A DNA stretch of 7,527 nt from a virus (IMGVR_UViG_2609460218_000012), one strand, 5' to 3'; numbered from the stretch's first letter, positions 2,654 through 3,728 are shown. Notes: generated by a model not told the origin, from the sequence alone. A program made the numbers and translations.

Positions 2654-3728
2654 CTTCATCACTCCTTACTCTGGCATCAACCACATTAATATTGATCGCC
2701 ACAGGCTGGGGATGTTCATTATCTTCCACCGTTTCGATCTCTTTGCGCAGCTTCTGGTTTTCCATTCTGCGCCGTTCAATTTCCAGTTCCTGTAGCCGTT
2801 TATCTGCACATAAAGCCCCGCCAGCAGAAAACAAACGCAACAATTCACGCCGGGCGGCAGCCTTATCCTCCAGCAGGATCTCAACGCCGAATTTTCCGAA
2901 TTTTGCCCCTGCATATAATTGCCGCGCATCCCCATCAAGCAGAGTGGTATCAGCCATATAAAGCTGTCCCGTTCCCTCACCGCAGCACTTCGGGCAGTCC
3001 GGATTGGGTATGGCGTTATCAACAAAGCCGAGGCCTCCATATTCCGGTTCGGGTTTGCCATCTCTGGAAGCCTGCGCCGCTGCCTTGTCGAATTCTGCTA
3101 TATCGCGCCACTGGTAGAGATGATTCTCGCCCCAGCAATAACGGCAGTTAACACGGCGAAATTGTGCAAGCTGATTGGGGTCGGCCAGGACAATAGCCAT
3201 CAACTGACTCACTAGTAAATCCAGGTCTGCGGTATAGCGTTTCTGGTACTGATTGCGGAAGTAGCTGATAGCGCGAAAAACCCTGGCATTTCTAAGCATA
3301 CGACTGGCGTTGCTGTTAGCTGTCGCACCTTGCCCCTCATAACCGGCTAGTCGGTACGCCTCTGTCGGCTTTTTACCCTGAGCAACAAGCATCGCAAACT
3401 TAGCCTGCTGGTCAGAAATGCCGAATTCATCGGGACAGAACGAAAATTCCTCCGCGTCGCCCTCATTCANGCCCGCATCGAATACTGGCTTTTTTTCCTG
3501 AGATTTTTCGTTCCGCTTTTGTGCAGTCTGCGCAGATTTTTTCTGCGCACTTTTTTGCGCAGTTTTGCACATTTCTGTCTGCGCATTTTTCGGAGTTTTT
3601 TTGATGTAACGACGGGCTGTTGCGTAATTCAGTCCCCTTGCTTCACACCATGCCACCGGAGATATACCGGAGCGGGTGTATTCAGCAATATACTCCTGCT
3701 GCAACGCCCCCCAGTCCGGTCTGCTCAT
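2634..3728 (-). CDS. Phage terminase small subunit (TerS), long form with N-terminal HTH-like region, K/Q/A-rich linker, P27-family-like core, Cys-rich putative zinc ribbon and C-terminal coiled-coil/acidic tail
   Basis: 364 aa ORF directly upstream of and overlapping terL. The central segment (..QQAKFAMLVAQGKKPTEAYRLAGYEGQGATANSNASRMLRNARV..) resembles the conserved core of P27-family small terminases. Cys cluster CRYC..CPKCC at about aa 195 to 249. ATG at 3728 preceded by AGGA. One ambiguous base (3470) gives an X but no frameshift. Confidence 0.75.
   Translation of the reverse strand: MSRPDWGALQQEYIAEYTRSGISPVAWCEARGLNYATARRYIKKTPKNAQTEMCKTAQKSAQKKSAQTAQKRNEKSQEKKPVFDAGXNEGDAEEFSFCPDEFGISDQQAKFAMLVAQGKKPTEAYRLAGYEGQGATANSNASRMLRNARVFRAISYFRNQYQKRYTADLDLLVSQLMAIVLADPNQLAQFRRVNCRYCWGENHLYQWRDIAEFDKAAAQASRDGKPEPEYGGLGFVDNAIPNPDCPKCCGEGTGQLYMADTTLLDGDARQLYAGAKFGKFGVEILLEDKAAARRELLRLFSAGGALCADKRLQELEIERRRMENQKLRKEIETVEDNEHPQPVAININVVDARVRSDEDDLSDA
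3518..3576. repeat. Array of four to five copies of the palindromic hexamer TGCGCA, each followed by a T-run, inside the terS coding region
   Basis: Plus strand: cTGCGCAgattttttcTGCGCActtttttTGCGCAgttttGCACAtttctgtcTGCGCAttttt. TGCGCA starts at 3519, 3534, 3546 and 3570, with a degenerate TGCACA at 3556. Spacing 10 to 15 bp. Encodes the K/Q/A-rich linker (KTAQKSAQKKSAQTAQK) of TerS. Confidence 0.7.

Follow-up and report, generated by a model that had tools for sequence, protein, structure and literature searches.

The terminase locus of a Rac-like prophage

The window, by which we mean the whole stretch of DNA analyzed (7527 nucleotides from the virus IMGVR_UViG_2609460218_000012), is part of a Rac-like Escherichia coli prophage. 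According to the ORF list and the Pfam matches, its minus strand carries, in this order, trkG, the gene of a ParB_N protein, the gene of a TAGT glycosyltransferase, an 83-aa ORF, terS, terL, and the gene of a DUF4055 portal protein. The terminase genes and the parts of TerS are located as follows:

1352-2662, minus strand: terL, large terminase (nuclease/ATPase), overlapping the terS stop; Pfam Terminase_6N and Terminase_6C
2634-3728, minus strand: terS, small terminase subunit, 364 aa; ORF, Pfam Terminase_2, phrog_51 (E 1.9e-75), RefSeq homologs annotated "terminase small subunit"
3597-3728, minus strand: N-terminal PacA-like helix-turn-helix (HTH) domain, aa 1-44, ...GLNYATARRYIKK; phrog_370, phrog_1711, hhalign, AlphaFold2
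3435-3596, minus strand: low-complexity K/Q/A linker, aa 45-98, between the N-domain and the Terminase_2 core; pLDDT 25-44 over aa 46-94
2766-3365, minus strand: Terminase_2 core, aa 122-321, with a CxxC...CxxC insertion at aa 195-248; Pfam match, Cys columns invariant in alignments

TerS belongs to the Terminase_2 family (PF03592), which it matches over aa 122-321 with 34.5 bits for a gathering cut-off of 26.1. The insertion in this core contains four cysteines and is Zn-ribbon-like. AlphaFold2 predicted three helices for the N-domain (pLDDT 69-80); the model of the full protein, built from a 12-sequence alignment, was of low confidence (mean pLDDT 49), and only its order/disorder pattern was used. 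Sequence searches of the PDB found no relative of the N-domain. The family alignment of the linker shows an almost unchanging AQ part and variable positions at aa 73-95. Of the 5426 complete E. coli genomes, 896 were found to contain a near-identical or related terS allele. The segment 20980-21570 of PP818812.1, labelled "Actinobacillus phage vB_Apl-pPE4", was found to share 93% DNA identity with the E. coli terS core; its host label is unexpected.

The ParB_N protein and the TAGT-family glycosyltransferase (PF20691; phrog_842 "beta-glucosyl-HMC-alpha-glucosyltransferase") are encoded between trkG and terS at 3919-5635 on the minus strand and may form a DNA-modification module. Conservation of these two genes beside other terS genes with the same N-domain was looked for and not found, and both products were rejected as binding partners of the array described below, as neither gene is conserved beside other arrays. 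Directly upstream of terS, the 83-aa ORF (3732-3983, minus strand) overlaps the 3′ end of the TAGT gene, and its match is to the central part of a different small-terminase family (phrog_309, positions 145-218 of 319, E 8e-23). The window contains Ns, and the reading frames of the portal gene (164-1264 with 1158-1349) and of trkG (5963-7000 with 7006-7251) look split. A C-terminal fragment of an IS3-type transposase lies at 7289-7465 on the minus strand.

A cluster of TGCGCA hexamers in the linker-coding part of terS

A preliminary description of the window had pointed to an array of TGCGCA palindromes inside terS. This array is real and comprises four exact copies and two copies with one mismatch:

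3520-3585: hexamer array, six TGCGCA-type sites; proposed pac recognition element and candidate binding sites of the TerS N-domain
3580-3585: copy 1, exact, AAT GCG CAG (Asn-Ala-Gln); gene offset 143
3566-3571: copy 2, degenerate in the window, sense TGTGCA (Met-Cys-Lys), plus strand TGCACA; gene offset 157
3556-3561: copy 3, exact, ACT GCG CAA; gene offset 167
3544-3549: copy 4, exact, AGT GCG CAG (Ser-Ala-Gln); gene offset 179
3529-3534: copy 5, exact, inside the sole full CTGCGCAG; gene offset 194
3520-3525: copy 6, degenerate in the window, sense TGCACA, plus strand TGTGCA, exact in many homologs; gene offset 203

The six sites span 66 bp (terS offsets 143-208), starting shortly after the end of the HTH-coding part at about offset 132 and occupying 13-19% of the reading frame, which agrees with the placement in the 5′ third of the gene given before. 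The cluster exceeds chance expectation. The whole 7527-bp window contains seven copies of TGCGCA for 2.67 expected; none of 1500 first-order Markov simulations produced four copies in 62 nt (maximum 2; Poisson ~4e-6), and the only further copy in terS is found at offset 979. The one-mismatch copies 2 and 6 (TGCACA and TGTGCA) are exact TGCGCA in most homologs; hence, the ancestral or family-consensus array would have had six copies. The array encodes the peptide NAQTEMCKTAQKSAQKKSAQTAQK, which falls in the disordered K/Q/A linker; the earlier suggestion that a low-complexity linker and a DNA site could coexist at this place was right.

Other details of that description needed correction. The range it gave, 3518-3576, holds three of the four exact copies, and the last one (3580) starts 4 bp outside. 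Successive copies are spaced by 9, 15, 12, 10, and 14 bp, a mean of 12 that roughly corresponds to the helical turn it proposed, but the phasing is loose. The 8-bp palindrome CTGCGCAG, said to be frequent, occurs in full only once (3528-3535), with a C before three and a G after two of the four exact copies. In the window, a T4-T6 tract does begin within 0-2 nt after each exact copy on the plus strand; as these tracts are absent from the Serratia and Aeromonas arrays, T/A-tract phasing was rejected as a conserved feature, and the tracts probably reflect Lys codons.

Copy number varies among E. coli alleles (P0045, P0009, L070, L072, L133, and L143), where the loss or gain of one SAQ, TAQ, or KSAQK unit brings the hexamer count to between 4 and 7. 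Some relatives (L199, L202, and L213) have bipartite arrays. Phage Rac-SA53 (KU052037; L004 ~2200-2322) carries a "gpO-terS fusion by deletion", as annotated, whose junction lies exactly at hexamer copy 1/2; its residual copies have decayed to TTCGCA, TGCGCT, and TGCCCA, as would be expected if the site were out of use.

The hexamers are kept beyond what the encoded peptide requires

The linkers of 18 representatives of the N-domain class, sharing less than 80% nucleotide identity, were synonymously recoded 2000 times with the codon usage of their own genes. The representatives contain 105 hexamers, against 9.1 expected under recoding (maximum 19 in the 2000 runs), and each of the 18 exceeds all of its own simulations.

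The consensus logo of the sites is aaaC-TGCGCA-Raa. Their usual reading on the sense strand is xxT GCG CAx (x-Ala-Gln), but the 107 sites are distributed over all three reading frames (84, 20, and 3) and encode 28 different tripeptides. In most homologs, copy 2 is an exact TGCGCA in another frame, xTG CGC AAA (Met/Val/Leu-Arg-Lys). The TerS of Serratia fonticola, with 53% protein identity, has five exact copies in its gene (offsets 143, 157, 167, 181, and 203) and one more in 6.9 kb. Its copy 4, shifted by 2 nt, reads CTG CGC ACA (Leu-Arg-Thr), in contrast to AGT GCG CAG (Ser-Ala-Gln) in E. coli. The check proposed in the preliminary description, namely whether the DNA repeat persists in homologs whose peptide differs, thus gave a positive answer. 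The underlying scan of genome contigs yielded four loci only, including the decisive Serratia and Erwinia loci.

The excess over recoding, the use of three frames and 28 tripeptides, and the Serratia codon change show that the motif is held at the DNA level and that the array is kept beyond what the encoded peptide requires. In a generic recoding test based on the most frequent 6-mer, most motif classes were significant and the window was marginal (P = 0.04); this test is conservative and is not passed by the proven P1 site (P = 0.17) or by 933W (P = 0.34).

The motif varies with the N-terminal domain of TerS

A blind scan of IMG/VR was carried out for three TGCGCA copies separated by 3-10 nt, and the N-domain was sought within 700 nt of each hit. 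A window-type N-domain was found near 76 of the 120 arrays, and in 73 of 83 hits, the distance from the end of the domain match to the start of the first hexamer is -8 to +5 nt. Several of the remaining arrays are located in TerS-like genes with another HTH class. Intergenic triplet arrays of TGCGCA were also observed in unrelated viral contigs (L257 4593-4626 and 5463-5496; L339 ~1891; L349 ~3710), near promoter-like (TATAAT) or RBS sequences, where they may serve other regulators as operators.

For each of the 66 distinct ARRY-type N-domains retrieved from IMG/VR, the hexamer most repeated in the DNA that directly follows the HTH is TGCGCA or a word overlapping it. AKRY-type domains (Pasteurella Pmp11, Klebsiella RothC, Providencia PSTCR3, and L229) have TGCGAA/TTCGCA instead. 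Pmp11 harbors nine copies of TGCGAA, which are non-palindromic and all in direct orientation, and retains an odd Cys-rich linker, NCETNCESNCET, together with the motif. Conversely, Aeromonas phage phiARM81mr, whose TerS core is different, has seven TGCGCA copies after the N-domain and none elsewhere in 2.5 kb. The N-domain was in every case the N-terminal part of a small terminase; the cores attached to it are of at least three types. A simple rule by which the R to K change in the ARRY helix would correspond to C to A in the hexamer is true in the close family and was rejected, as it is broken by P1, which combines ARRY with TGATCA.

Other HTH classes on the same Zn-ribbon TerS core each have their own motif array at the same position (L008 ~700-790, L093-L109, L110, L112, and L144), usually with several copies in direct orientation and then one or two that are inverted. 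The Erwinia-type class has four GGGGCA(A)n followed by the inverted TGCCCC/AGCCCC, the CCGACC class four CCGACC followed by two GGTCGG, and the GTTTCCAC class two GTTTCCAC followed by two GTGGAAA. The GGTACGCA class has five copies in two frames (Gly-Thr-Gln and Val-Arg-Lys) and one inverted copy, and the GTTCGC class has GTTCGC/GCGAAC. The inverted copies encode unrelated peptides, and arrays containing them therefore cannot be produced by peptide selection or slippage. Taken across these families, the comparisons show covariation between the motif and the N-terminal HTH domain of TerS.

The arrangement resembles the pac site of phage P1

The profile of the N-domain matches aa 3-41 of P1 PacA with an hhalign probability of 91.8% (E 7e-7). 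The N-domain also matches the PacA family phrog_1711 (E 1.3e-3; E 3.6e-5 when the whole TerS protein is used) and, more strongly, phrog_370 (E 9.7e-15), while the P1 PacA N-terminus matches phrog_1711 strongly and phrog_370 with E 2e-4. As these alignments are short and weak, they lend moderate support to homology between the TerS N-domain and the N-terminus of PacA. An alignment including P1 (A6) was too divergent for a locus scan.

P1 pac consists of seven TGATCA/G hexamers inside pacA, placed around an annotated IHF site and the cleavage positions 255-284, with TGATCA at offsets 193, 200, 212, and 227 and TGATCG/TGATCA at 323, 335, and 346. The hexamers are required for P1 packaging, which their synonymous mutation lowers ~9-fold, and they act as duplex, methylation-dependent sites (PMC10028697).

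The window shares with P1 a PacA-like N-terminal HTH and, shortly after the segment that encodes it in the small-terminase gene, multiple palindromic TG..CA hexamers; in both systems, these occur in more than one reading frame. However, its hexamer is TGCGCA instead of TGATCA/G and contains no GATC (Dam) site, hence no obvious control by Dam methylation. Its six sites also form one cluster within 66 bp, unlike the HEX4 and HEX3 clusters of P1, which lie ~95 bp apart around the IHF site and cleavage region. The proteins differ as well, since the Terminase_2 core with its Zn-ribbon-like insertion is unrelated in sequence to the C-terminal part of PacA, and TerL is of the Terminase_6 type, unlike PacB.

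Comparison with Stx phages and other packaging systems

The TerS of phage 933W (L0112) has the same N-domain (hhalign probability 98.9%). In its gene (L253 1501-2307; AF125520 28775-29581), (C/T)GATCAT is repeated four times with an exact 12-bp spacing right after the N-domain, where it encodes the peptide IDHEIDHKTDHEIDH. Stx-phage TerS and the TerS of the window thus have in common the N-domain and the short sites that follow it in linker-coding DNA, but the YGATCAT motif of the 933W type is P1-like, with Dam sites, and its TerS core is different. From this sequence, the (C/T)GATCAT array is predicted to be the P1-like, Dam-site-containing pac of Stx-converting phages. 933W is a generalized transducer of the headful type and seems to be terminally redundant (PMC3752737).

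The SPP1/SF6 G1P proteins, type members of the Terminase_2 family, share the PF03592 core with the TerS of the window. The SPP1 pac (pacL-pacC-pacR) also lies in the 5′ part of terS, with several TerS contacts flanking the cut, and the specific in vitro binding of G1P is weak or disputed (PMC9611059). Unlike the TerS of the window, G1P is without an extra N-terminal PacA-like HTH, and its contacts do not form a hexamer array. P22 pac is likewise located inside terS (gene 3) and serves headful packaging (PMC9611059). It is, however, a single asymmetric site of ~22 bp and belongs to a different TerS family, an arrangement that the window does not have.

In phage lambda, cosB contains the sites R3-R2-R1, bound by the winged HTH of gpNu1, with IHF. 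As in our proposal for the window, several short sites are read by an N-terminal HTH of the small terminase, anchoring the holoenzyme beside the cut; lambda differs in being a cos system with 16-bp sites outside coding sequence and an unrelated HTH family.

Three further sources were considered and set aside. The pac peak in termS of the LF82 "Gally" prophage, the sole such peak for E. coli that the literature yielded, belongs to a P22/Sf6-like TerS of 140 aa, which is a different type (PMC9928086), and the ON4705xx "phages", which carry an identical terS, are prophages extracted in silico; the paper on phi367 offers nothing on packaging. In the literature, we found no description of a TGCGCA array, nor of a pac site for the TerS family of the window, for Rac, or for Stx phages, and the same searches turned up neither termini nor binding results for this family.

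Proposed function and alternatives

We are confident, on the basis of these comparisons, that the hexamers are a DNA-level array of binding sites. By analogy with P1, the array would more specifically be a P1-type pac recognition array bound by the N-domain of TerS, a reading to which we assign a probability of about 65%. The candidate pac or TerS-binding site of the preliminary description is thereby supported.

In the mechanism that we propose, the N-terminal HTH (aa 1-44) would bind each hexamer, as the covariation suggests. Oligomerization of TerS through its Terminase_2 core would present many HTH modules on disordered, lysine-rich tethers, and the multivalent contacts of these modules with the close-set sites would provide the nucleus for terminase assembly, either on phage concatemers or on the prophage before its excision. 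A first cut by TerL near the array would follow, and headful packaging would proceed from terS through terL to the head genes, in the direction of decreasing window coordinates.

A TerS operator other than a packaging start would also be compatible with these data. The array could be bound by the N-domain or by another regulator, for example in autoregulation of the late or terminase operon, with packaging starting elsewhere. The covariation links the domain to the site and not to cleavage, and the intergenic TGCGCA arrays found in unrelated viral contigs do lie beside promoter-like sequences. Yet the domain always sits at the N-terminus of a small terminase, across at least three core types, and recognizing DNA for packaging is the role of TerS; the homologous arrangement in P1 is a proven pac site; the array is within a coding region, well downstream of any promoter; and the neighboring ParB_N and TAGT genes are not conserved beside other arrays. 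We regard an operator as unlikely, though it is the best placed of the alternatives.

Far less probable is that the repeat has no DNA function and arose, through slippage and concerted evolution, as a by-product of a low-complexity S/T-A-Q-K peptide. Such an origin would suit the predicted disorder of the K/Q/A linker encoded here, the copy-number polymorphism of the E. coli alleles, and the 84 of 107 copies that share the xAQ frame. It does not account for the excess of ~11-fold over the synonymous recoding null in each of the 18 diverged lineages, nor for the other-frame versions of the same hexamer, which encode [LVM]R[KTNS], xAH, or CA. The inverted copies seen with other classes encode unrelated peptides, Pmp11 accepts its Cys-rich NCETNCESNCET to keep TGCGAA, and the hexamer is kept across Escherichia, Serratia, and Aeromonas despite their differing codon usage.

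Equally improbable is an action of the hexamers by secondary structure, either as terS mRNA hairpins tuning TerS/TerL translation or as DNA cruciforms, rather than as protein-binding sites. The RNA of window positions 3500-3610 (minus strand) does form hairpins of paired hexamers when folded (-29.8 kcal/mol; z = -4.36 relative to shuffles), and several classes mix direct and inverted copies, but any palindromic repeat set gives such an energy. The Pmp11 array is direct-only and non-palindromic, and the positions and numbers of copies shift between lineages with no conserved pairing partner. Secondary structure would also leave the change of motif with the HTH domain unexplained, and the equivalent hexamers of P1 work as duplex, methylation-dependent sites (PMC10028697).

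Finally, it is hardly credible that the repeats are a recombination joint for swapping N-domain modules between terminase cores. The array does lie exactly at the boundary where the same N-domain meets different cores, and copy 1/2 is where the deletion of Rac-SA53 has its junction; yet repeats of six bp are not long enough for homologous recombination, the motif-domain covariation and strict codon constraint would go unexplained, and the position is rather a consequence of module linkage than a function.

A possible portable packaging cassette

A pac recognition array read by the TerS N-domain could also be one case of something broader. Many temperate-phage TerS may carry a portable "reader plus address" cassette, in which an HTH module is encoded together with its cognate hexamer array in its own linker DNA. 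This cassette would exist in several HTH classes, each with its cognate motif (TGCGCA, TGCGAA, YGATCA, GGTACGCA, GGGGCA, CCGACC, and others), and would have become joined to TerS cores of at least three unrelated kinds; we hold the chances of this wider reading to be even. If it is true, packaging specificity moves and diversifies as a unit, and the P1 site exemplifies a pac code that is widespread and predictable. The pac sites of Stx phages and Rac-like prophages would also follow from this code, and with them the points at which their lateral transduction starts.

Few pac sites have been defined. A review stresses the lack of clarity about how pac-type TerS proteins recognize viral DNA by sequence and the difficulty of demonstrating specific binding of TerS to pac in vitro (PMC9611059). 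The present finding offers a short, repeated, sequence-defined candidate site and a small, separable HTH domain, and the natural specificity variants (TGCGCA, TGCGAA, and GATCA) make recognition directly testable. The terS allele family concerned is that of the 896 E. coli genomes mentioned above, and a related cassette is found in Stx phages. A defined pac site could serve engineered transducing particles as a packaging signal, and it would predict where, and in which direction, lateral and generalized transduction driven by these prophages begin.
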